Below are positions 1 to 12,263 of a DNA stretch of 14,213 bases, one piece after another. The notes beneath the pieces are model-generated. The model saw only the letters and a list, made by a program, of their open reading frames with translations, did not search any database and was not told where the DNA came from. Source of the DNA: a virus (Duplodnaviria > Heunggongvirae > Uroviricota > Caudoviricetes); the IMG/VR virus record IMGVR_UViG_2698536549_000018. One strand, given 5' to 3'. Position 1 is the stretch's first letter. Each line of letters opens with the position of its first letter. Position numbers and translations under genes: made by a program.

Positions 1-24
1 AAAAAAGCCCCTCCGGAGAGGGGC
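1..24 (-). terminator. Intrinsic terminator (hairpin GCCCCTC-CGGA-GAGGGGC followed by T6 on the minus strand)
   Basis: Plus strand reads A6 then perfect 7-bp GC stem with 4-nt loop at 7-24; on the minus strand this is stem-loop plus TTTTTT. Forms the 3' end of repeat copy A. Confidence 0.6.
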
Positions 25-237
25 CGATCGCTATGTATACACCATAAGCAGCATAGTGCCGGGTGCCTCCCGGTAGATTCAGCCTGACTACTGAATCTGC
101 GTATTGTGACCATCGCTATGGAGACCATGTCAGACGCCCCTCCGCACAGGGGGATTCACTATGCTGGCTCGTTTTTACAAGACTTCCATCGATCAGACAA
201 TAGTCCATCAACCGAATTGTGAGTCATTTAACATTTC
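4..237 (-). repeat. Copy A of a ~240-bp diverged noncoding repeat (terminator hairpin, CCGGGTGCCTCCCGG hairpin, CGCCCCTCCGCACAGGGGGATTCAC block, GAATTGTGAG..ATTTAACA block)
   Basis: Blocks at 7-24, 56-74, 135-159 and 214-237 recur in the same order and spacing at 1965-1982, 2016-2034, 2108-2132 and 2187-2210. No conserved ORF: the ATG after the second block opens a 28-codon frame here and a 10-codon frame in copy B. Confidence 0.6.
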
Positions 238-850: not shown

Positions 851-1576
851 TCAGATAACGTCTGCTTTCTGCAAATATGCATAGCTCTCAGGTGGTGCAC
901 CATAATACTGGTGAAATACAGAAATGAAATAGGACTTACTTGAGTAACCACATTTTTCCGCTATCGCTTGTCCACACTCTCGCTGGAAACATACAAGATT
1001 AACAGCAACACGCATTCGCTCCTCCAGCAACAACCGACTAAAGCTATAACCTTCATCCTTAAGTTTTCGCTTCAACAAGCTTTCGCTCATATGCAATTGT
1101 AATGCAATCACACCTAGCATCCAGCCTGCCGATATGTCGGTCTGAATTATAGCCCTTACTTTACAGCTGATATTATTTACAGCACCGGACAAAAATAATG
1201 GCAGACGCCTGTCTGTTGCAAATAAGGAGATACATGAAAATGCGGTTATAACAGAGAAATCCTTCAAAGTATCACTGGATTCACTATGCTGGGTTATTAA
1301 AGCCTCCGCCAGTTCCGTATTGTAAATATCAGACATCAAATAAAGAGGCATTTTTGTCGGTGTATACTCCGTCAGTTCACACTCCCTTTCCAGATACTGA
1401 TTGACGACGCTGTTACTTATATCTGCCATTTTCACTCTGTCGGCATAAGCACAGAAAAGCCCTCTTATATTTCTGGCAACAAGCATAACACTTCCGGCAT
1501 CGAGTGAAACTTTTTCTTTTTCAAGAAAAATATCTATCGGATAGCGAATCAGGACCACAGAGCAGGCAACATCCAT
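851..1576 (-). CDS. AraC/XylS-family transcriptional regulator (241 aa)
   Basis: C-terminal ~100 aa has the double helix-turn-helix AraC signature (..SESLLKRKLKDEGYSFSRLLLEERMRVAVNL.. and ..IAEKCGYSSKSYFISVFHQYYGAPPESY..). AT-rich with a weak SD, typical of horizontally acquired Rns/AppY/GadX-like regulators. Confidence 0.85.
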   Translation of the reverse strand: MDVACSVVLIRYPIDIFLEKEKVSLDAGSVMLVARNIRGLFCAYADRVKMADISNSVVNQYLERECELTEYTPTKMPLYLMSDIYNTELAEALITQHSESSDTLKDFSVITAFSCISLFATDRRLPLFLSGAVNNISCKVRAIIQTDISAGWMLGVIALQLHMSESLLKRKLKDEGYSFSRLLLEERMRVAVNLVCFQRECGQAIAEKCGYSSKSYFISVFHQYYGAPPESYAYLQKADVI

Positions 1577-1952: not shown

Positions 1953-1961
1953 GTCCATAAG

Positions 1962-2210
1962 AAAGCCCCTCCGGAGAGGGGCTGAAGCCGCATTTCTGTA
2001 TCACCATGAGCATGGTGCCGGGTGCCTCCCGGTGAGTTCAGCCCGGTGACACCAAACCCGCGTATTCTCGCTTACGATCATCAAAGAGATCATACCGTTC
2101 ACCAGTCGCCCCTCCGCACAGGGGGATTCACCATGCGAAATTTTTTTAACAAATGCTCAGTCTGACAGGCAACTGTCAACTTACTGAATTGTGAGGGATT
2201 TAACACTTCA
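1962..2210 (-). repeat. Copy B of the ~240-bp diverged noncoding repeat, including hairpin GCCCCTC-CGGA-GAGGGGC at 1965-1982
   Basis: Same ordered blocks as copy A (see 4-237). Lies directly 3' of the lipoprotein gene on the minus strand. Confidence 0.6.
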
Positions 2211-2271: not shown

Positions 2272-2700
2272 TCAGAGTTTAAAATCCAGCACGCCATTTC
2301 TAAATGCTTTATATACTCCTGAAGACGGTGGTGATGGTATATCAGCATTCTTTACTGCATTCATCGCTTCACGACATAAATCGGGATCACCGCTTTCTCT
2401 TTTAACCTGTAGCAGAAGACCATTCGGGGCCATATACATTCTCAGTGAACACTCTTTTCCTGAATACTTACTCGCATCCTTTAACTGTTCTTCTATGGCT
2501 TTCCTGACCTGAATGGCATACAGCCGGATTTCTTCACTGGCATCAGGGGTACGTTCCGATGAGCTCAAATTTTGCGACTTTATTAATTTATCTGAGTGAT
2601 ACAGAGAAGCATCATAATTATTTGTCGATACATCTTTTGTGCAGCCAGTTGTCAGACTGGCTAATATCAAAACAAGAACCGGTACAGCACGGCAATACAT
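2272..2700 (-). CDS. Lipoprotein with TolA C-terminal domain III-like domain (142 aa)
   Basis: N-terminal signal peptide with lipobox (LILASLTTG-C). C-terminal ~85 aa (YAIQVRKAIEEQLKDASKYSGKECSLRMYMAPNGLLLQVKRESGDPDLCREAMNAVKNADIPSPPSSGVYKAFRNGVLDFKL) aligns closely with the C-terminus of E. coli TolA as recalled (..YAGQIKSAIESKFYDASSYAGKTCTLRIKLAPDGMLLDIKPEGGDPALCQAALAAAKLAKIPKPPSQAVYEVFKNAPLDFKP). ATG start with GGAG upstream; AT-rich upstream region. Confidence 0.8.
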   Translation of the reverse strand: MYCRAVPVLVLILASLTTGCTKDVSTNNYDASLYHSDKLIKSQNLSSSERTPDASEEIRLYAIQVRKAIEEQLKDASKYSGKECSLRMYMAPNGLLLQVKRESGDPDLCREAMNAVKNADIPSPPSSGVYKAFRNGVLDFKL

Positions 2701-2900
2701 TTATCCATCTCCATATTAACAAGAACAATTATCTATAAAATATAGTAAATATGCGGGATCCGGGAGGACTTGTAACTATCATCTCCGGATCAGCATGTAG
2801 TTTTTATTTTTCCGGATGATATATGCCGCAATAATACCCCTGCATACAGATGCCTGCAAATATCTACGAAGCATCCGGCGAGAATAAACAAGGAAGTCTG

Positions 2901-2922
2901 AGGCTATCTTATATGATAGCCT
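2901..2922. promoter_or_regulatory. Perfect palindrome AGGCTATC-TTATAT-GATAGCCT between the tRNAs and the lipoprotein gene; candidate operator or structural element
   Basis: 8-bp perfect inverted arms around a 6-bp AT spacer, read directly. No flanking T-run, so not a classical terminator. Confidence 0.3.
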
Positions 2923-2978
2923 GTTGCTCAAAAGACAATGATTCACTCATCAGAACCAACAACGCATAATGCAGATAA

Positions 2979-3055
2979 TGGACCGCCATCGAGGACTCGA
3001 ACCCCGCGCAGCCAGCTTCGAAGGCTGGCGCTCTATCCCGATGAGCTAATGGCGG
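2979..3055 (-). tRNA. tRNA-Arg (anticodon UCG by manual fold)
   Basis: Reverse complement folds as a cloverleaf: acceptor CCGCCAT/ATGGCGG (7 bp), D-arm GCTC..GAGC, anticodon stem CCAGC/GCTGG with loop CTTCGAA, T-arm CGGGG-TTCGAGT-CCTCG, discriminator and encoded CCA. Confidence 0.8.
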
Positions 3056-3064
3056 TATGTGATA

Positions 3065-3139
3065 TGGTGGCCTTGCTGGATTTGAACCAGCGACCTGGCG
3101 ATTATGAGTCGCTCGCTCTCACCACTGAGCTAAAGGGCC
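3065..3139 (-). tRNA. tRNA-Ile2/Met-like (anticodon CAU), ileX-like, with an apparent 1-nt deletion in the 3' acceptor strand
   Basis: Reverse complement GGCCCTTTAGCTCAGTGGTGAGAGCGAGCGACTCATAATCGCCAGGTCGCTGGTTCAAATCCAGCAAGGCCACCA resembles E. coli tRNA-Ile2. Anticodon loop CTCATAA, T-loop TTCAAAT. The 3' acceptor strand reads AAGGCC where AAGGGCC is needed to pair with 5' GGCCCTT. Confidence 0.7.
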
Positions 3140-3258
3140 GGGCGCAGGATAATAACGTTACGAAATAAATGTTGCAAGCATTCAAGAATCACCTGGTTAA
3201 AAATTACCCTTACTTCCTCCACCAGCGCATTCACCATTTCTATCCGAGATAAGTGGCA

Positions 3259-3290
3259 TAAAAAAACCCGCTTGTGGGCGGGTTTTGTTT
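3259..3290 (-). terminator. Bidirectional intrinsic terminator between the Q-like gene and the tRNAs (tR'-like)
   Basis: A7, then stem CCCGC/GCGGG with 6-nt loop, then TTTTGTTTG on the plus strand; on the minus strand the same hairpin is followed by T7. Positioned as lambda tR' is relative to Q. Confidence 0.6.
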
Positions 3291-3349
3291 GCTTTTGCCA
3301 TCACGTACAAAATCGGCAAAATATCAGATTTGCATGAAATATATGCCTT

Positions 3350-4039
3350 TCAATCTACTTTTGCAACACTTTGCTTTGAAAATGCCGCCTTTTGTTTTGA
3401 ACGTGTTCTCATTACAAACAATAAAGCCTCACTATCCAGTCGGTGAAAAATGTGTTTCATTGCAACCCAGTGACGAGTAAATGTTTTGGACCAGTTTTTA
3501 GTTGTCACTCCCGCCAGTAATGCCAGCTCCTGGTATTCATAACCTTCCCCACCAAAAAGTTCTGCTTTTACTGCCTGCGCCGCCAGCCAGATTAATTTTT
3601 TCAGGCGTTCCTGCGTTTTCCCTGCAATTTTTCTGGTACCGGATTGAGTATTAAATTCATTCCACGCCCACTGTGTTATCGCGATCTGATATTCCCAACA
3701 AATACTCCCGCTGTAACTCCACAACAACCAGGCTTTATGATGTTCTTCAAGAGACAGAACAGCCCGCCGCCACGATGATGTCGAAAACTCAACCGGACTG
3801 ACCAGAGGAATTGACGTCCCCTTCGCCAGCGATTGTTTCCCCGGGATTGGTGGATTATCCCGCGTAATCATTTTTCCGGTCACTTCATCTCGGTACCGGA
3901 TTTTTTTACGCCTGTAACGCCCTGTATCGAACATGGCATTCTCCTGCCAGGCTTCAAGCTGACCTTTTGTTGCCCCACTCAAATCAGCGGTGGCGATAAT
4001 GAGCTGCTCACGCACAAACTGTAAATACTGGTTATTCAT
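3350..4039 (-). CDS. Putative late-gene antiterminator Q-like protein (229 aa from the ATG at 4039)
   Basis: Follows rusA with an ATGA start/stop overlap and precedes the tR'-like terminator and tRNAs, the canonical Q position. Trp-rich sequence; no lambda-Q zinc finger seen, so the family is assigned by position only. Confidence 0.55.
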   Translation of the reverse strand: MNNQYLQFVREQLIIATADLSGATKGQLEAWQENAMFDTGRYRRKKIRYRDEVTGKMITRDNPPIPGKQSLAKGTSIPLVSPVEFSTSSWRRAVLSLEEHHKAWLLWSYSGSICWEYQIAITQWAWNEFNTQSGTRKIAGKTQERLKKLIWLAAQAVKAELFGGEGYEYQELALLAGVTTKNWSKTFTRHWVAMKHIFHRLDSEALLFVMRTRSKQKAAFSKQSVAKVD

Positions 4040-4395
4040 GCGCACTCCAGTTCTGTGATTTTTATCCCCAGCCGCCCACCAGGAACGAGCTGACCGCGCA
4101 CAATATTGATTTCATCAAACTGCTCGTCGTCTATAAGTAGTCCGGCATGCGTCAGCGCATCCAGTGGTGCCTTCAGGATATTGTCCAAGTCGCGGCGGCG
4201 CTTATCCGGTGGCTCTGCAATAATCTTTATCGCCAGCCTTCCGGACAGGTTTAATTTCAGCCGCTGCTGGCGAACAATAAGCGCCACATCATGGCGATAA
4301 CGCTTTCCGGCCTCCGAGATGAAATACGTATTGCCATGACGTCGCCAGTAGGTATTCACCGTCGGCGGGTAAGGCAAAACAAACTCTATACACAT
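4036..4395 (-). CDS. rusA: Holliday junction resolvase RusA (119 aa from the ATG)
   Basis: Sequence matches the RusA family (..YRHDVALIVRQQ..PPDKRRRDLDNILKAPLDALTHAGLLIDDEQ..GGRLGIKITE..), including the catalytic D-rich core. SD GGGGG upstream of the ATG at 4395. Confidence 0.85.
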   Translation of the reverse strand: MCIEFVLPYPPTVNTYWRRHGNTYFISEAGKRYRHDVALIVRQQRLKLNLSGRLAIKIIAEPPDKRRRDLDNILKAPLDALTHAGLLIDDEQFDEINIVRGQLVPGGRLGIKITELECA

Positions 4396-4409: not shown

Positions 4410-5467
4410 TTACCCAAGCACACCGGTTGCAAAGGCGTGATCAAGAAAACGAAAAATTAAATCAACCTGAGAACCATGCTTTTCTTCGAACGCCAGCGGA
4501 TCCACATGAAGCTCGTTATGATGCTCCCGACACAGCGGTAGCGTGAAAATATCGTGGGCTTTTGTTCCCATTCCCCCCTGACCATGACCAATCAGGTGAT
4601 GCGGATCGTCAGCTGGCTTACCACAACACGCACACGGCTGTGTCTTTACCCAGCGCGTGTATTTCTCATTAACCCAACGGCGATGTTTAGGCCGCTTCAT
4701 AAACGATTCAGGAGACTCCGGATCAACGGCGATACTGACAACCGTTTTTTTCTGTGGTGGATTTTGTTGCTGGTGGACGTGAAGTGGCAGCGCAATATTT
4801 TTTGTGCGCTGCTTCAGTATGCTGATGGCTGTCTGTTCTCCCGGTACGATGTCACTCTCACGGTATACGGAGCGGATTTTTTCCNNNNNNNNNNNNNNNN
4901 NNNNNNNNNNNNNNNNNNNNNNNNNNNNNNNNNNGCATCCACCACCTGATTGCAGGCCGCCCACCAGGATAATTCGGCCAGCGATAACTCCCTCTCCTGC
5001 GTACCGCTTATTGCGTGACGTATAACATCAATCATCCAGACTGCCAGATTCTGCTGAGCAAGTTGATCGAGTGATTCTGATGTCTGGTCGCGCAGCTGGT
5101 TGTCACAGTGCCAGCACAACACCATCGCGCCGGTACCGTAACGATGTATGACTGTTTCACTGTGATGATAGTCACCATGAGGCCACTGGCAGGATTTGAC
5201 ATGACGCAACAGCCAGTCAGACAGTGCGCCAGCGCCGCCAGCAGCACGAATCACCCGCTCATCGCTGAAAAATGGCAGTAATGATTTATCTTCCGCCAGC
5301 GGCTGGCGAACAGCAGGAACAACTCCGGACGGCAGACCGCGCATGCTTTTCGGTTCCGGCTCCACCAGCACTCGAGGGTTATGAAATACCTGCATGGATT
5401 CACGGCCCGGCTTTAGCACCACCAGTCCAAGTTCCGGTACCGGAACAGGTCGAAGCAATACCCGCAC
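4410..5467 (-). CDS. DUF968-like prophage protein (YdfU-like, ~350 aa) with Cys/His-rich HNH-like C-terminal region; interrupted by an assembly gap
   Basis: Two ORF-track pieces (4410-4964 and 4814-5467) are separated only by the N run and are in different frames, consistent with a gap of arbitrary length. C-terminal motif ..CACCGKPADDPHHL..HGQGGMGTKAHD..LPLCREHHNELH... GTG start at 5467 with GGAGG 5 nt upstream. Confidence 0.7.
4885..4934. other. Assembly gap (50 N) inside the DUF968-like gene
   Basis: Run of n characters read directly from the sequence. Confidence 0.99.
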
Positions 5468-5468
5468 G

Positions 5469-5741
5469 TTACCTCCAGATGCGTTGCTGGAATGTGCGGG
5501 ACGGACGCGGTGGGCGTTCGGAATAAGGGAGTCTGACGTAAATTATCCAGAGACGATAATCGAGGCTGAGAGCTTTCTTAATCTCGTATCCGCGTCTGCG
5601 GTAGTTCTGAATCAGCCATTCGGCCTGTTCTTCAGTGCATGGGTTATGCTGGAACCAGTCGGTTTTAAATGCGCGCGAACGCCGCCCGTGCCGGATGGCA
5701 AGGTCGGTATCAGAATTGTGATGTTTGGTATTGTGCGCCAT
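5469..5741 (-). CDS. Hypothetical small basic protein (90 aa from the internal ATG), positionally equivalent to rem in Qin-like prophages
   Basis: The longer 132-aa frame would translate through the hok terminator hairpin, so the ATG at 5741 is preferred. Its TAA stop abuts the GTG start of the DUF968-like gene. Weak SD. Confidence 0.4.
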   Translation of the reverse strand: MAHNTKHHNSDTDLAIRHGRRSRAFKTDWFQHNPCTEEQAEWLIQNYRRRGYEIKKALSLDYRLWIIYVRLPYSERPPRPSRTFQQRIWR

Positions 5742-5810
5742 CGGTTTTCTCTGCTGGCGCAGCAGGTGCCAGTTGTTCAGGCTGGCCTGTGGATTGTAAA
5801 CCAGAATACG

Positions 5811-5845
5811 TAAAACAAAAAACCCGCCGAAGCGGGTTAAGCGCG
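5811..5845 (-). terminator. Intrinsic terminator downstream of hok (AACCCGC-TTCG-GCGGGTT followed by TTTTTTGTTTT on the minus strand)
   Basis: 7-bp stem at 5821-5827/5832-5838 with tetraloop, preceded on the plus strand by a 12-nt A-rich run (T-run on the minus strand). Confidence 0.7.
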
Positions 5846-5907
5846 GGTGCGTTGAGGATGCCGACACATCAGAGGTGGCGGGAGATTACTCTCCCGCCTG
5901 GTCACTC

Positions 5908-6063
5908 TTACTTCTCAGATTCGTAGTCCACGAAGACAGCGACCTCCGTCTGGCCGGTTCGGATTCGTACCTCGCAGAGGTCTTTCCTCGTTACCAGTGC
6001 CGTCACTATGACGGTTAAACAGATGACGATCAGGGCGACTAACATCGCCTTTTGCTGCTTCAT
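5908..6063 (-). CDS. hok: Hok/Gef-family type I toxin (51 aa); in-frame upstream ATG at 6120 gives a 70-codon mok-like frame
   Basis: MKQQKAMLVALIVICLTVIVTALVTRKDLCEVRIRTGQTEVAVFVDYESEK matches the Hok signature (single TM helix, conserved ..RK.LCE.R...G..EVAAF..YES..). GGAG SD upstream of the ATG at 6063; terminator downstream. Confidence 0.85.
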   Translation of the reverse strand: MKQQKAMLVALIVICLTVIVTALVTRKDLCEVRIRTGQTEVAVFVDYESEK

Positions 6064-6274
6064 AGACTGCTTCTCCTTGCCTTTCGGCACGTAAGAGGCT
6101 AACCTACATTTGTGAGACATAGATTGGGCCTCAGATTAATGTTAAGCGTCTTGCAGGACGCGTAATGTTAACTGGGGCTTTTCTCTATCTGCCTTTTGGT
6201 GTTCATGCCTGAGGCAGATAGCCTCAAGCACCCGCAGCAATTCTACTTAACTCTCCTTTTCCCGCAAACCGTTT

Positions 6275-6358
6275 TTATCCCCAACGGCAAATCGAATACA
6301 CCACCAGCACCACCGCCATCGCAATTCCTACCGTTGTGAATGCTTCAGGCCAGGTCAT
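6275..6358 (-). CDS. Candidate 27-aa hydrophobic peptide (MTWPEAFTTVGIAMAVVLVVYSICRWG), translationally coupled to the upstream gene
   Basis: ATG at 6358-6356 overlaps the TGA stop of the 131-aa gene (ATGA). Single predicted TM segment. Below the ORF-track length cutoff; found by manual translation. Confidence 0.3.
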   Translation of the reverse strand: MTWPEAFTTVGIAMAVVLVVYSICRWG

Positions 6359-6750
6359 CGATTCACCTCCTGCTCAATATTTTTAAGGTCATTTTCCGCA
6401 TACAGTATTGCTGTCCTGGCTGCTCGTAACCGGGCTTTGGCGTTTTTCTCTTCACGTTCAAGTTTTGCCACAGCTTCACGAAGAGCATCTCGCTTTGCAT
6501 AGAGTGATTTAATCTCTGATACGATGTTTTCACCGTTTCTCGCACGGTCGAGAACAAGTTCGAACGGATCTAAAGTCAATCCACACCGTTTGCAGGTAAT
6601 CGTACGATTCACTTCTGAAATTGTTGTACGGATATGCTGACAGCATTTTTGCTCGACACTTTTTTCGTCGGTTATCACAACGTTGAGGAGTCCTCCCTCC
6701 TCTGATTTTGGCTGTACCAGGGTGATAACATTGTCGACTTCATTTTTCAT
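6355..6750 (-). CDS. Hypothetical phage protein with C-x2-C...C-x2-C zinc-ribbon-like motif and C-terminal coiled-coil (131 aa)
   Basis: Cysteine pairs (..KCCQH.. and ..CKRCG..) then a charged heptad-like segment (AKRDALREAVAKLEREEKNAKARLRAAR). Start overlaps the previous stop (TGATG). Confidence 0.7.
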   Translation of the reverse strand: MKNEVDNVITLVQPKSEEGGLLNVVITDEKSVEQKCCQHIRTTISEVNRTITCKRCGLTLDPFELVLDRARNGENIVSEIKSLYAKRDALREAVAKLEREEKNAKARLRAARTAILYAENDLKNIEQEVNR

Positions 6751-7115
6751 CAGTTCACCTCCTGCGGTGGTTCCGGTAGCGGCATCCAGTGAGTTGCCTG
6801 CTCAATACCATTACCCGGCTTAATCGTTGCTTCTCCTCGCCGGAATGTGCTTCCTGTATAGCGTGCGGAGCATATTAGCGGTTCAACCAGAGAGCTATCG
6901 AAATTCACCGAAATAAGTACGTTCTGGTTCTTTTCTGGCATTCGCTCACTACAACTTATCCAACCATCCGGAGTTACCGGAGAGTTGCCAGCCTTGCGCA
7001 TGGCAATCTCCACGATTTCAACCATATCTCCTGGCGGGATTTTGCAATGCTGACCAAAGCGCCTCTGCTGTCTGGCATACTCGAGGATGTGCTCCAGTTT
7101 GGTTCGATTAATCAT
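6750..7115 (-). CDS. DUF551-like phage protein (121 aa)
   Basis: C-terminal HWMPLPEPP motif characteristic of DUF551 as recalled. Start overlaps the previous stop (TAATG). Confidence 0.7.
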   Translation of the reverse strand: MINRTKLEHILEYARQQRRFGQHCKIPPGDMVEIVEIAMRKAGNSPVTPDGWISCSERMPEKNQNVLISVNFDSSLVEPLICSARYTGSTFRRGEATIKPGNGIEQATHWMPLPEPPQEVN

Positions 7116-7528
7116 TATTTATCTCCCTTAAGCATGGTGGCGCGGCAGGCGTTCCAGCCATCAGCATATGTTTCAGTTACACCGTCGAGATGGCAGGTAA
7201 GCAAATCCATTTCATCAGGCACTACCATCGCTGGCGGCGCTGCGTAAAGCGGTGTTATTTCTGCCCGAAAATCACCTACTTTATGCAGTCGCACCCACCG
7301 TTCGATTTCTGCTTTGTCAGAATTCATAAGGGTGAACGTATTACATTCATGGTTAATTTGCGTGAAGGTTGCCTTCCACGCCACTGGCTCTGCTTCCAGT
7401 GATGCCAGTGCGATACGAAACACATTGGCAAGCAGGCTGTCTGAAGATTGGTTATCGTGCGCCGGGTCGCTCAGGAAACCAGTGATGAATGATTTAATCT
7501 CCGCGTTTTCTCTGGTAATAGTGGTCAT
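7115..7528 (-). CDS. Hypothetical phage protein (138 aa from the ATG at 7528)
   Basis: ATG at 7528 has AAGGA 9 nt upstream and abuts the stop of the upstream 72-aa gene; the longer ORF-track version would overlap that gene. Confidence 0.65.
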   Translation of the reverse strand: MTTITRENAEIKSFITGFLSDPAHDNQSSDSLLANVFRIALASLEAEPVAWKATFTQINHECNTFTLMNSDKAEIERWVRLHKVGDFRAEITPLYAAPPAMVVPDEMDLLTCHLDGVTETYADGWNACRATMLKGDK

Positions 7529-7529
7529 A

Positions 7530-7748
7530 TCAGCTTTCCTTATATGGGTTGATTTTGTTGTGCAGTGTGTTGAACGACGCCCATACCACGTCGTTACACA
7601 ATTCAATAACTGGCTCAATTATTTTCCCGATAAACCAGACCAGTAATAGCGGGGATATCGGTATCATCAACACGATAAACAGAATGAGAAACAGGAATTC
7701 CGTTGCTCTGCTCTTTCGCGGATATTCTTTTCTGAATAATGTAGTCAT
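7530..7748 (-). CDS. Small membrane protein (72 aa)
   Basis: Strongly hydrophobic core (FLFLILFIVLMIPISPLLLVWFIGKII). An AGGAGG-like SD lies 5' of a GC hairpin that sits between it and the ATG. Confidence 0.5.
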   Translation of the reverse strand: MTTLFRKEYPRKSRATEFLFLILFIVLMIPISPLLLVWFIGKIIEPVIELCNDVVWASFNTLHNKINPYKES

Positions 7749-7876
7749 TTATTACCGCCCTTTCGGGCGGCCTCCTGATGTTTTGAGGGTGCAGAAATCC
7801 CTCCGGTTAAGGATTTAATAAAATTCACTTCTGATTTAAATTTTTCAGTGTTTTGTTGTCAGGTGGTTTATCGCCT

Positions 7877-8188
7877 TTATGCTTCAGCCTTATTTCTCAG
7901 CCATACACAAACAGGACCATCTTCAGTGTCATGAATGGAACCAATGAACCAGCCTTCACCTTCCAGGCGCTCCGGTTTCCAGGAGGCAATATCGGGACCA
8001 TCTGCGTCCAGATTAAAATCATCTTCATCCATAGTTCTGATGGTCCATTGAAGATTATTTTCCTCCATCCATGCGTTAAACTCTTCCGTTGAAATATGTT
8101 CTCTACCATCACAGAAATTTTCATATTCAGGATGCGTCCAGCAGCCATATGCATCACGTTCTACCGGCATTTCTTTGATTTCGTTCAT
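7877..8188 (-). CDS. Hypothetical acidic phage protein (103 aa from the ATG at 8188)
   Basis: ATG at 8188 with GGAG 9 nt upstream, just after the TAA of the upstream gene. Acidic, Trp-containing sequence; no family recognised. Confidence 0.65.
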   Translation of the reverse strand: MNEIKEMPVERDAYGCWTHPEYENFCDGREHISTEEFNAWMEENNLQWTIRTMDEDDFNLDADGPDIASWKPERLEGEGWFIGSIHDTEDGPVCVWLRNKAEA

Positions 8189-9139: not shown

Positions 9140-10240
9140 TTACCCCCTGAAGCCTGGCGGAATTTCGGTATCCGGTTCAGAAACATGATTCACACAACGC
9201 TGGTTGTTCGTGCCGCTTACCGGGAGCAACCAGGGGTTTTCAAAATTCCGGTCCGGTCCAAAAAACGTCGTCGCTCGCTGAACAAATTCCGTTCCCGTTT
9301 TCCCGGTAGTCGCCAAGTATCTTGCGTAACGCCTCACGCCATCCAGCATGGCCTCTGGTGGCACCCCCTCGCGTAATCTGGCCTTCCAGGCACTGAAAGC
9401 GGATTTCTTCGGGTTTGCCCCGGCACGCAACGGGTATTCCCGCCAGACCTGTTCGAACACATCCGGATAATCCACTCGTCCCACAGGCTGCCCGGTGTTT
9501 TCCGGGACTACCTGATCGGCTTCCCGCTGAATGGCGGAATCGGCTTCAGGCTGCTGCAGTTGGTGTGATTGTTCCGGCCTTGCGGTCATCGCCTGCTGCA
9601 CAGCGCCCGAATCGGCTTCCGGTGTCGTGCCTGCTGGCTGACCAGGATTGACGTTCTGAACATCCCCTGCCTGGTTCGTGGCGATTTTTTCGCCATGAAG
9701 CATAGTATTTTTATCCTGATCCTGTTCTTTCTCCTGTTCTTGGCTTAGAAGCCCCTTTAAAGCCTCTTCGAAGCCCCTTGCTGAATTCCGGCGATTATTC
9801 CGCCTCACATCCAGATGGAAATCCGTTTTATATCTGTCGTAAAAGGCTGACAGAAAGGCGTTTTCAGGTAATGATGCATACTCATTCCTGACACCTGCAC
9901 AACGGTTATCTCCAGGCTTCAACGTTTCCCCAACCTGCCAGGCTGCCATTTCATGGACCCAGACCATCTCGGCATCATGGTCATAGCTACAAAAACCAGC
10001 TTCAACAGCCCTTTTAAGCCCCTTCGAAGCCCCTTCCGGACCAAGCCCGGTTTCATGAGCAAGGTACAAAACTGGCAGGTAATACAAACCCAACATATTT
10101 GCGTGAGGGGATGTCATCAGGTAAAAAGCAACAACTTGCGCTTCTGCACCCGCCTTTCTAAGTTCTCTCCCCGTTTCTCCCAGCCAGAATCGCGGGGAAA
10201 CTTTTGCATAATCACGCATGTTCACCTCGTCTGGAGCCAA
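9140..10240 (-). CDS. Putative phage replication-initiation / replisome-organiser-like protein (366 aa; alternative ATG start at 10219)
   Basis: Largest early-operon ORF, at the position of O/YdaU-type replication genes. Low-complexity Gln/Glu/Pro-rich linker between N- and C-terminal domains. Function assigned by position and general resemblance only. Confidence 0.7.
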   Translation of the reverse strand: MAPDEVNMRDYAKVSPRFWLGETGRELRKAGAEAQVVAFYLMTSPHANMLGLYYLPVLYLAHETGLGPEGASKGLKRAVEAGFCSYDHDAEMVWVHEMAAWQVGETLKPGDNRCAGVRNEYASLPENAFLSAFYDRYKTDFHLDVRRNNRRNSARGFEEALKGLLSQEQEKEQDQDKNTMLHGEKIATNQAGDVQNVNPGQPAGTTPEADSGAVQQAMTARPEQSHQLQQPEADSAIQREADQVVPENTGQPVGRVDYPDVFEQVWREYPLRAGANPKKSAFSAWKARLREGVPPEAMLDGVRRYARYLATTGKTGTEFVQRATTFFGPDRNFENPWLLPVSGTNNQRCVNHVSEPDTEIPPGFRG

Positions 10241-11786: not shown

Positions 11787-12263
11787 ATGCTTAGTGGTAA
11801 AGACTTAGGCCGAGCGATAGAGCAGGCCATTAACAAAAAAATTGCATCAGGATCCGTCAAATCAAAGGCGGAGGTAGCGCGTCACTTCAAAGTCCAACCA
11901 CCATCAATCTATGATTGGATTAAGAAAGGTTCGATAAGTAAAGATAAACTTCCAGAGCTATGGCGTTTCTTTTCTGATGTGGTTGGCCCAGAGCATTGGG
12001 GGCTTAACGAATACCCCATACCCACCTCCCTCATTTCAGATACAAAAAGTGAACTTTTAGACATAAACAGCCTTTATCAAGCCGCCTCTGATGAAAAAAG
12101 AGCCATTGTGGCTTTTCTCTTATCAGCAAATGCCACGGAACCTGGTTGGGTTGATCATGACGTTCGCGCCTACATTGCCACAATGGAGATGAAGGTAGGT
12201 AAGTATTTGAAAGATCAAGAATCAGAACGGAAAAGCCAGAACATCACCAAAACGGGAACTTAA
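11787..12263 (+). CDS. Prophage repressor, RacR-like HTH protein (158 aa)
   Basis: Divergent from the Cro-like gene across the operator array. GGAGA SD upstream. N-terminal HTH-like segment (SKAEVARHFKVQPPSIYDWIKKG). Same length as Rac RacR as recalled. Confidence 0.75.
   Translation: MLSGKDLGRAIEQAINKKIASGSVKSKAEVARHFKVQPPSIYDWIKKGSISKDKLPELWRFFSDVVGPEHWGLNEYPIPTSLISDTKSELLDINSLYQAASDEKRAIVAFLLSANATEPGWVDHDVRAYIATMEMKVGKYLKDQESERKSQNITKTGT

Follow-up and report, generated by a model that had tools for sequence, protein, structure and literature searches.

A prophage-borne lipoprotein built on the C-terminal domain of TolA and its possible role as an outer-membrane decoy

The prophage TolAIII lipoprotein

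The window analyzed in this study (the whole 14,213-nucleotide stretch of the IMG/VR virus record IMGVR_UViG_2698536549_000018, assigned to the Caudoviricetes) is a lambdoid prophage whose minus strand carries, at positions 2272-2700 (stop codon included), a gene for a 142-residue lipoprotein with a stand-alone copy of the C-terminal domain (domain III, hereafter TolAIII) of the Escherichia coli protein TolA. The assignment was made from the list of open reading frames (ORFs), the Pfam family PF06519 and the PHROG family 5772. The ORF is intact, starts with ATG and is preceded by a GGAG motif located 8 nucleotides (nt) 5' of the start codon (2712-2709). Its product is composed of three parts: a lipoprotein signal, a 33-residue disordered linker and the TolA C-terminal domain. 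The guanine plus cytosine (GC) content of the gene is 41% vs 47% for the window, so that its initial annotation as AT-rich is correct, the bias being mild.

The signal peptide and lipobox, as read from the sequence, occupy residues 1-20 (MYCRAVPVLVLILASLTTG followed by the lipobox Cys; 2641-2700, minus strand) and are laid out as MYCR, AVPVLVLILASL and TTG before Cys20, thus providing the positively charged n-region, the hydrophobic h-region and the lipobox closing on a Cys that are typical of lipoproteins. The lipobox matches a PROSITE-type rule, with a Thr at position -3 that is atypical in comparison with the classical Leu. Gly19 (-1) and Cys20 (+1) are at least 90% conserved (alignment A1), unlike the remainder of the signal peptides of the relatives, which diverge to only about 35% identity. 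A strict lipobox pattern is present in 50 of the 75 short relatives, none of which (0 of 50) has an Asp at +2. Cys20 is predicted to be lipidated and to form the N-terminus of the mature protein. According to the Lol rule of E. coli, a lipoprotein without Asp at +2 is sorted to the outer membrane and, since the +2 residue is Thr21, sorting to the outer membrane's inner leaflet is predicted. The periplasmic tether proposed in the initial annotation is therefore retained as far as the lipoprotein signal is concerned, and its predicted anchor can now be specified as the outer membrane.

The linker (residues 21-53; 2542-2640, minus strand) is rich in Ser, Asp, Thr and Asn, is predicted from the model confidence to be disordered, and represents the most divergent segment between alleles (58% identity vs 78% for the domain). 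It is followed by TolAIII itself (residues 54-142; 2275-2541, minus strand), delineated by identity and by the structural model as a succession of alpha1, beta1, beta2, alpha2, alpha3 and beta3. Two Cys residues of the domain, Cys84 and Cys109, are invariant (alignments A1 and A3) and correspond, with an offset of 279, to C363 and C388 of TolA. This pair forms a disulfide in TolAIII, and its invariance is consistent with a folded, disulfide-bonded periplasmic domain. When the mEp460 allele (67% identical) is taken for comparison, the ratio of nonsynonymous to synonymous substitution rates amounts to 0.33 over the full length, with values of 0.27 in the domain and 0.36 in the linker, pointing to purifying selection on the entire protein.

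Resemblance to TolA and the basis of its database name

Residues 52-140 match PF06519 (TolA C-terminal) with an E-value of 4.6e-22 and a score of 78.5 bits (cut-off 25), the match extending over positions 7-96 of the 96 in the profile. Residues 54-141 can be aligned without gaps to residues 333-420 of E. coli TolA (E about 1e-25; PDB entries 1s62, 3qdp, 1tol and 9k49), with 45 of 88 positions (51.1%) being identical. As judged by these sequence comparisons, the resemblance is far beyond chance. An AlphaFold2 model made with 43 homologues has a predicted local distance difference test score above 90 over residues 54-142 and below 50 over residues 1-50. The best Foldseek matches of this model are the E. 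coli TolAIII structures 3qdr_A and 3qdp, with a root-mean-square deviation of 0.9-1.1 Å and a target-normalised template modelling score of 0.93-0.94, and the next-ranked ones are the complexes of TolA with g3p and with the CTXphi pIII. The initial annotation had read the C-terminal part as approximately half identical to the TolA domain, and alignment, profile and superposition all bear this out. Together with the conserved lipobox Cys they also uphold its view of the gene as a lipoprotein-anchored, stand-alone TolAIII copy carried as prophage cargo. The closest relative of the window domain beyond its own clade is E. coli TolAIII, and TolA has the same residues at the positions that do not vary within the family.

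In the genome databases the protein bears the Prokaryotic Genome Annotation Pipeline (PGAP) name "cell envelope integrity protein TolA". This name can be traced to the TIGR02794 model, which clears its low cut-off (72.8 vs 59.45) on its last 96 positions alone (266-361 of 362). The strict TolA equivalog model NF007065 of NCBIfam covers only its positions 298-386 and scores 100.1 vs a cut-off of 213. Neither domain I of TolA (the transmembrane segment that couples it to TolQ-TolR) nor domain II (the long Ala/Lys/Glu-rich helix spanning the periplasm) is present in the 142-residue protein, which has a lipoprotein signal in place of the former and a 33-residue linker in front of its domain. The database name is therefore an over-annotation, the protein being a member of the TolA C-terminal domain family with TolA proper excluded. 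The only PHROG family matched is phrog_5772 (E 4.9e-57), annotated as of unknown function.

The same labelling is systematic: RefSeq, PGAP and IMG call this 14-kDa lipoprotein TolA or "colicin import membrane protein", with transport terms of the Gene Ontology attached, so that thousands of records carry a misleading name. Two literature leads that were followed under such names were dismissed. The 32-fold induction by ciprofloxacin of a "TolA-type" gene, EDL933_2012, concerns the tail-fibre gene RS09825 and has no bearing on the expression of the family, and a paper on soil survival of O157 deals with the chromosomal tolA, which is other than the prophage gene.

Genome context of the gene

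The early part of the prophage, read along the minus strand, consists of immunity and replication genes, hok/sok, a gene for a DUF968 protein, RusA and the antiterminator Q. Directly after Q come a promoter-like site and a strong hairpin/T-run terminator, then a tRNA with a CAU anticodon, a tRNA-Arg and the TolAIII lipoprotein gene, and these are followed by an STnc100-type RNA with a terminator, an AraC-family regulator and a second STnc100 copy. The Q gene (3350-4045, minus strand) was identified by the Pfam family Phage_antiter_Q (E 7e-91). Beside it, at 3263-3366 of the same strand, the promoter scan and inspection of the sequence revealed a candidate late promoter (3366-3338) and a short-transcript terminator (stem 3286-3263, T run). 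These elements probably represent PR' and tR', the start of a Q-dependent late operon that would hold the TolAIII gene.

The two phage tRNAs (2979-3140, minus strand; ARAGORN and Rfam) are a tRNA-Arg(UCG) at 2979-3055 and the CAU-anticodon tRNA at 3066-3140, with a promoter-like site (3177-3149) just upstream of the pair. ARAGORN classifies the CAU tRNA as tRNA-Met and RefSeq lists the identical gene of strain N51 as tRNA-Ile; presumably it belongs to the Ile2 type that carries a lysidine modification and is part of the ileZ-argN-argO sets in Shiga toxin (Stx) phages. The intergenic region between the tRNAs and the TolAIII gene (2701-2978, minus strand) contains the GGAG motif and one weak sigma-70-like site (TTTGCA-18-TATTAT, 2860-2831, matching at 9 of 12 positions). 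The gene thus has an upstream region of its own, the 279 nt that follow the tRNA-Arg, as initially annotated, whereas an independent promoter within it is not established, the 9/12 match being of chance frequency.

Downstream of the gene, the STnc100-type RNA element (1953-2165, minus strand; Rfam RF02076, 172 bits vs a gathering threshold of 47) ends in a terminator-like hairpin (1983-1964). The second copy in the window lies at 1-193 (minus strand), and each of the two comes after a cargo gene. All prophages examined have one to four such elements between Q and the lysis genes, where they interleave with tRNAs and cargo genes (at 9336-10044 and 11804-12016 in locus L001, at 5700-5890 in locus L002 of mEp460_ev081, and at 5281-8152 in locus L006). 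They may be module boundaries, terminators or small RNAs derived from 3' untranslated regions. Between the two copies lies the neighbouring cargo, a gene for the AraC-family regulator (851-1576, minus strand; Pfam HTH_18 and HTH_AraC), which may resemble the prophage-encoded Psr regulators of enterohaemorrhagic E. coli, followed by an ORF of 92 residues (483-761) that matches no family. In the early region, the hok/sok type I toxin-antitoxin (5908-6233, minus strand) was recognized by Pfam HOK_GEF and by an Rfam sok match of 119.7 bits. Upstream of RusA, a 50-N assembly gap (4885-4934) falls within the DUF968-like gene, and the ORFs around it are artefactually split because the N run interrupts the gene.

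The placement between the tRNAs and the late genes that the initial annotation had assigned to the gene is right, although the window ends at coordinate 1 before the late genes are reached. These can be seen in strain N51, whose sequence is 100% identical across 651 nt surrounding the TolAIII gene and in which the row continues with a SASA-family esterase, a holin, a lysozyme, an Rz-type lysis protein and the terminase. In a survey of the locus context in 80 related IMG/VR viral contigs, all detectable neighbours are encoded on the same strand as the TolAIII gene. Holin or lysozyme genes are found downstream of the gene in 8 of 10 loci of type A (the allele type of the window), 1 of 1 of type B and 38 of 38 of type C among those with enough flanking sequence, and Q or RusA is found upstream wherever the three Q queries used could detect Q. 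A downstream AraC-family regulator is present in 5 of 13 viral contigs of type A and in none of the 45 of type C, its linkage to the TolAIII gene thus being inconstant. A 41%-identical homologue from Salmonella occupies the same Q-to-holin slot, which is the position of the stx genes in Stx phages. In a prophage of EDL933 (O157:H7; 15275-19198) the slot between the tRNAs and the SASA esterase holds genes for TerB-family and DUF3927 proteins, and a regulator with a helix-turn-helix domain is located directly upstream of the phage tRNAs. This different cargo makes the Q-to-lysis slot look like a cargo hotspot.

The window allele is a candidate moron: it lies between conserved phage modules, has a lower GC content than the window and is followed by a terminator-like hairpin within the STnc100 element, but its promoter match is of chance level. 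In mEp460, a tandem unit has a 10/12 promoter match on one side and a terminator on the other, and looks like a classic moron. The upstream regions of the three alleles compared do not align, and no conserved promoter was found among them.

Distribution in genomes, plasmids and islands

A megablast search with the 651-nt query gave matches in 1,634 of 5,426 complete E. coli genomes (about 30%), with at least 80% of the query covered in 123 of the 1,634, and the exact window protein is found on 524 contigs. At least three allele types (about 99%, 72% and 67% identity) occur in E. coli, and many frameshifted copies besides. An exhaustive HMMER search over 1.84 billion cluster representatives yielded 294 relatives. 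Among the 150 best matches, about half have a length of 100-215 residues, which is not that of a full TolA, and these mostly possess a lipobox. The named members come from Escherichia, Shigella, Salmonella, Klebsiella, Kosakonia, Serratia, Enterobacter and Raoultella, with alleles as low as 30-50% identity. Among the GenBank phage genomes a single record, mEp460_ev081, was matched at E <= 1e-5, suggesting that the family resides mainly in integrated prophages and plasmids. No TolAIII-like fold was found in the viral structure library BFVD at E <= 0.001.

By tblastn the family is present on 1,331 plasmids. On IncF plasmids similar to pO157 the gene is in the leading region, after psiB-psiA-hok, and on Klebsiella IncFIB plasmids it adjoins a gene for a thioredoxin-fold protein. 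One of the former, pTA144, encodes at 5815-6246 a TolA_C lipoprotein of 143 residues, a few kb upstream of toxB; proteins of this type form a cluster of 399 members, and the exact sequence occurs on at least 1,000 contigs.

The ColRNAI plasmids of 10-12 kb encode a TolAIII lipoprotein together with a Sec-secreted protein consisting of a TonB C-terminal domain (TonB_C), the counterpart of TolAIII in the other import motor. The pair adjoins the genes for a colicin-like tRNase bacteriocin, its immunity protein and a lysis protein, and is transcribed separately from them. In a 10,060-bp ColRNAI plasmid of Klebsiella the TolA_C/TonB_C pair lies at 1512-2245, the TolAIII protein being a lipoprotein. 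The TonB_C partner was found on 422 plasmids, almost always next to a gene named "tolA". On other small plasmids with Rop, a TolAIII lipoprotein occurs alongside a lysozyme-like bacteriocin and a colicin lysis gene, and a published survey of Klebsiella bacteriocins lists, with no further remark, a "TolA protein" for a cloacin-type plasmid. The only perfect LexA box of the ColRNAI plasmid is at the bacteriocin promoter; none is present upstream of its TolAIII homologue or near the gene in the window.

A TolA_C/TonB_C pair is also contained in an integrase/AlpA island of Salmonella Oranienburg (7001-7796; L013), where the TolAIII allele has a Gly in place of the lipobox Cys. The Kosakonia and Serratia homologues are chromosomal, beside DinI or Cho and integrase fragments. 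In type-C prophages a second, very divergent TolAIII lipoprotein of the pO157 type is encoded directly downstream (57 of 57 viral contigs), represented in mEp460_ev081 by a gene at 6580-6975 (Pfam E 1.3e-14). The tandem pair was found at 99% identity or higher in 776 complete E. coli genomes, and the type-A allele of the window is not accompanied by a second gene.

Ligand-binding surfaces

TolAIII is an interaction hub, described as promiscuous. Its strand beta3 is bound by the N-terminus of TolB and by the N1 domain of g3p, and its strand beta2 by colicin A (ColA), both contacts being made by beta-strand augmentation. The reported dissociation constants (Kd) are about 1.3 uM for ColA-TolAIII and 40-200 uM for TolA-TolB. 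In the prophage protein, the beta3 edge strand reads NGVLDFK compared with NAPLDFK in TolA (5 of 7 identical), and its residues N135, L138 and F140 are at least 90% conserved across the family. In the ColA site, four of the eight mapped residues (L375, L376, K379 and K396) are identical and I378 is conservatively replaced by Val. These comparisons make the prophage domain a putative binder of TolAIII ligands, the changes at the remaining ColA positions being considered below.

Discussion

The data establish how the TolAIII lipoprotein is built and folded, that its disulfide pair is conserved and a lipobox present, that it is under purifying selection, and where it is found, both as prophage cargo and across genomes. 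As for its function, we tentatively favour, as a reading somewhat short of probable, that the gene encodes a decoy of TolA, tethered to the outer membrane and uncoupled from the motor, against Tol-dependent colicins and filamentous phages. Upon export by Sec, lipidation of Cys20 and sorting by Lol, the protein would hang on its flexible linker of about 33 residues from the outer membrane's inner leaflet, so that a disulfide-bonded copy of TolAIII would be displayed just beneath the outer membrane. At this site Tol-dependent invaders would first expose their TolA-binding epitopes, among them the N1 domain of g3p/pIII of filamentous phages and, for group A colicins such as A, N, E1 and K, the translocation domains; colicin-activated TolB is a possible further target. 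A decoy devoid of domains I and II would have no coupling to TolQR, a ligand bound to it would not be pulled in, and the lysogen would become tolerant. In a moderate amount it could stop invaders and leave Tol-Pal uncrippled, because the Kd for an invader is micromolar as compared with 40-200 uM for TolA-TolB. The initial annotation had raised decoy, exclusion and modulation of Tol-Pal as candidate functions, and the present data speak to them circumstantially, through the bacteriocin adjacency, the TonB_C pairing, the tandem TolAIII genes, and the precedents of exported TolAIII and of pIII-N1.

These precedents come from experiments with the host domain or with its ligand. Exported TolAIII, like the prophage protein, is a periplasmic TolAIII without the motor part, and it is reportedly the case that the construct of 1993 gave tolerance to group A colicins. 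It is, on the other hand, a soluble, over-expressed laboratory construct of the host domain, whereas the prophage version is natural, diverged, lipid-anchored and mobile. Exported TolAIII is reported to make the outer membrane of E. coli leaky (Levengood-Freyermuth, Click and Webster 1993; Wan and Baneyx 1998), and it has been used in biotechnology to make the outer membrane leak periplasmic proteins. Periplasmic pIII-N1 sequesters TolA, which results in resistance to colicin A and a 4-log fall in phage uptake.

Several observations weigh against the decoy. The gene has the orientation of the Q-dependent late operon in every prophage, with the lysis genes just downstream of it. The promoter scan of the window produced 5 sites vs 3.7 expected, which is not significant and leaves a promoter of its own unsupported, and the scan for the Salmonella allele is likewise at chance level. 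With such a position and no supported promoter, expression of the TolAIII lipoprotein in the lysogen, as needed for protection, is an inference. At the ColA site K368, D377 and P380 of TolA are replaced by Tyr, Gln and Arg, respectively. In TolA K368 partners Tyr58 of ColA in an essential cation-pi contact, so binding of colicin A may be weakened by these substitutions. Frameshifted or truncated alleles are fairly common, suggesting that the gene is dispensable in many hosts. The PADLOC defence models have no match to the lipoprotein. Searches of the full-text literature retrieved no study characterising a TolAIII lipoprotein and no experimental work on this protein or any homologue, in agreement with the initial annotation, which knew of no characterised function.

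The late position of the gene underlies the main rival explanation, in which the protein is a saboteur of Tol-Pal in the late phase. Made from the Q-antiterminated transcript, it would compete with TolA for the N-terminus of TolB at the outer membrane and switch off the mobilisation of Pal. The resulting transient tol phenotype (leaky, hypervesiculating) would aid rupture of the outer membrane and release of virions, or of co-encoded products such as the NanS-p esterase or bacteriocins, protection from colicins and phages being a side effect. We hold this to be unlikely, although the orientation shared with the late operon sustains a role in lysis or release as a rival. In its favour, the late strand always carries the gene, between Q or the tRNAs and holin/lysozyme, the window allele is without a convincing promoter of its own, exported TolAIII is known to make the outer membrane leak, and the plasmid homologues accompany bacteriocins, which need release. 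On the other hand, the prophages already own a full lysis cassette of holin, lysozyme and Rz-type protein, and the plasmid gene stands outside the SOS-controlled bacteriocin-immunity-lysis operon, with no LexA box. The weak TolA-TolB contact would demand high expression for TolA to be out-competed, the TonB_C partner has no obvious role in lysis, and homologues occur in such non-lytic settings as the IncF leading region, IncFIB plasmids and chromosomal islands. A decoy role and late sabotage are not mutually exclusive and could coexist.

It appears similarly improbable that the gene is cargo for host fitness or envelope remodelling, in which the TolAIII fold would merely serve as a beta-strand-augmentation module for another ligand, such as a different periplasmic or outer-membrane protein or a part of the phage entry or exit machinery. 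This would accommodate an identity to TolAIII of only 51% with several substitutions in the ColA site, the great diversity of the family with two very different tandem paralogues, the unrelated cargo (TerB-family protein, AraC-family regulator) hosted by the slot, and the promiscuity ascribed to TolAIII. It is countered by E. coli TolAIII being the nearest relative beyond the clade, by the invariant residues being the same as in TolA, and by the recurrent pairing with TonB_C and bacteriocins, which points to import machines. That the gene represents a genuine or backup TolA, or else a decaying functionless fragment, is a most implausible alternative. The PGAP name, the TIGR02794 score and, for decay, the existence of frameshifted alleles can be quoted in its favour. 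Yet the TIGR02794 match is confined to the C-terminal end of the model, the NF007065 score is less than half of its cut-off, and the protein has a lipoprotein signal and neither domain I nor domain II. Decay is further contradicted by purifying selection, by the identical protein on hundreds of contigs and by the matches in nearly a third of complete E. coli genomes. Both versions are effectively refuted by the architecture. The decoy is favoured on account of four associations: the TonB_C pairing, the location next to bacteriocin operons yet separate from them, the divergent paralogues in tandem, and the occurrence in non-lytic elements. An arms-race decoy fits these better than the other ideas considered.

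Comparison with known systems helps to define what such a decoy would be. With domain III of E. coli TolA (residues about 333-421; 3QDP, 1S62, 1TOL) the prophage protein shares the fold, the disulfide pair and the beta2/beta3 edge strands. It differs in being prophage-encoded, in the substitutions at K368, D377 and P380, and in being lipid-anchored, as predicted, at the opposite membrane, with no coupling to TolQR and the proton motive force. Exclusion by pIII/g3p of filamentous phages targets the same interaction between TolAIII and its ligands, but as a mirror image: pIII ties up the receptor of the host, while the prophage protein would copy that receptor and tie up the invader. Small, entry-blocking lipoproteins encoded by mobile elements are a recurrent theme, as in Llp of T5, Cor of phi80 and HK022, TraT of F and Lpp of the mEp phages. 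Cor and TraT are exclusion lipoproteins, and proteins of this kind bind and mask outer-membrane receptors such as FhuA, OmpA and LamB. The Lpp proteins of the mEp phages have been described as entry-blocking lipoproteins, and so has Llp. The TolAIII lipoprotein has no sequence relationship to Cor, Llp or TraT (PHROG, PADLOC) and would mimic a periplasmic energy transducer instead. If the model holds, the novelty would lie in an entry-blocking lipoprotein of a mobile element that mimics a host domain rather than masking a receptor. Colicin immunity proteins similarly provide plasmid-borne protection from bacteriocins beside the toxin gene, but each neutralises one cognate cytotoxic domain, whereas a TolAIII decoy would act at import and could cover many Tol-dependent toxins.

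A broader proposal, which we regard as possible albeit with considerable doubt, is that mobile elements of the Enterobacteriaceae, from lambdoid prophages and IncF plasmids to small bacteriocin plasmids and integrative islands, make wide use of periplasmic decoys modelled on both envelope energy transducers, TolAIII outer-membrane lipoproteins and secreted TonB C-terminal domains, often paired or in tandem, as an unrecognised layer of broad immunity against bacteriocins and Tol- or Ton-dependent phages. If true, this layer could explain part of the natural colicin tolerance of E. coli isolates.

If the sabotage explanation were correct, the protein would be a new auxiliary factor in phage lysis and in the release of vesicles or toxins, encoded in the slot of the Shiga toxin genes. 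If the decoy is correct, between about a quarter and a third of the sequenced E. coli, as well as more than 1,000 plasmids, would carry a transferable, generic tolerance factor acting on the Tol entry route (and, with the TonB partner, the Ton route) of colicins, klebicins and filamentous phages. It would then bear on the frequent colicin insensitivity of natural isolates and on competition among Shiga toxin-producing, bovine and clinical strains, on bacteriocin- and phage-based therapeutics against E. coli and Klebsiella, and on the use of copies of host domains as decoys by mobile elements.

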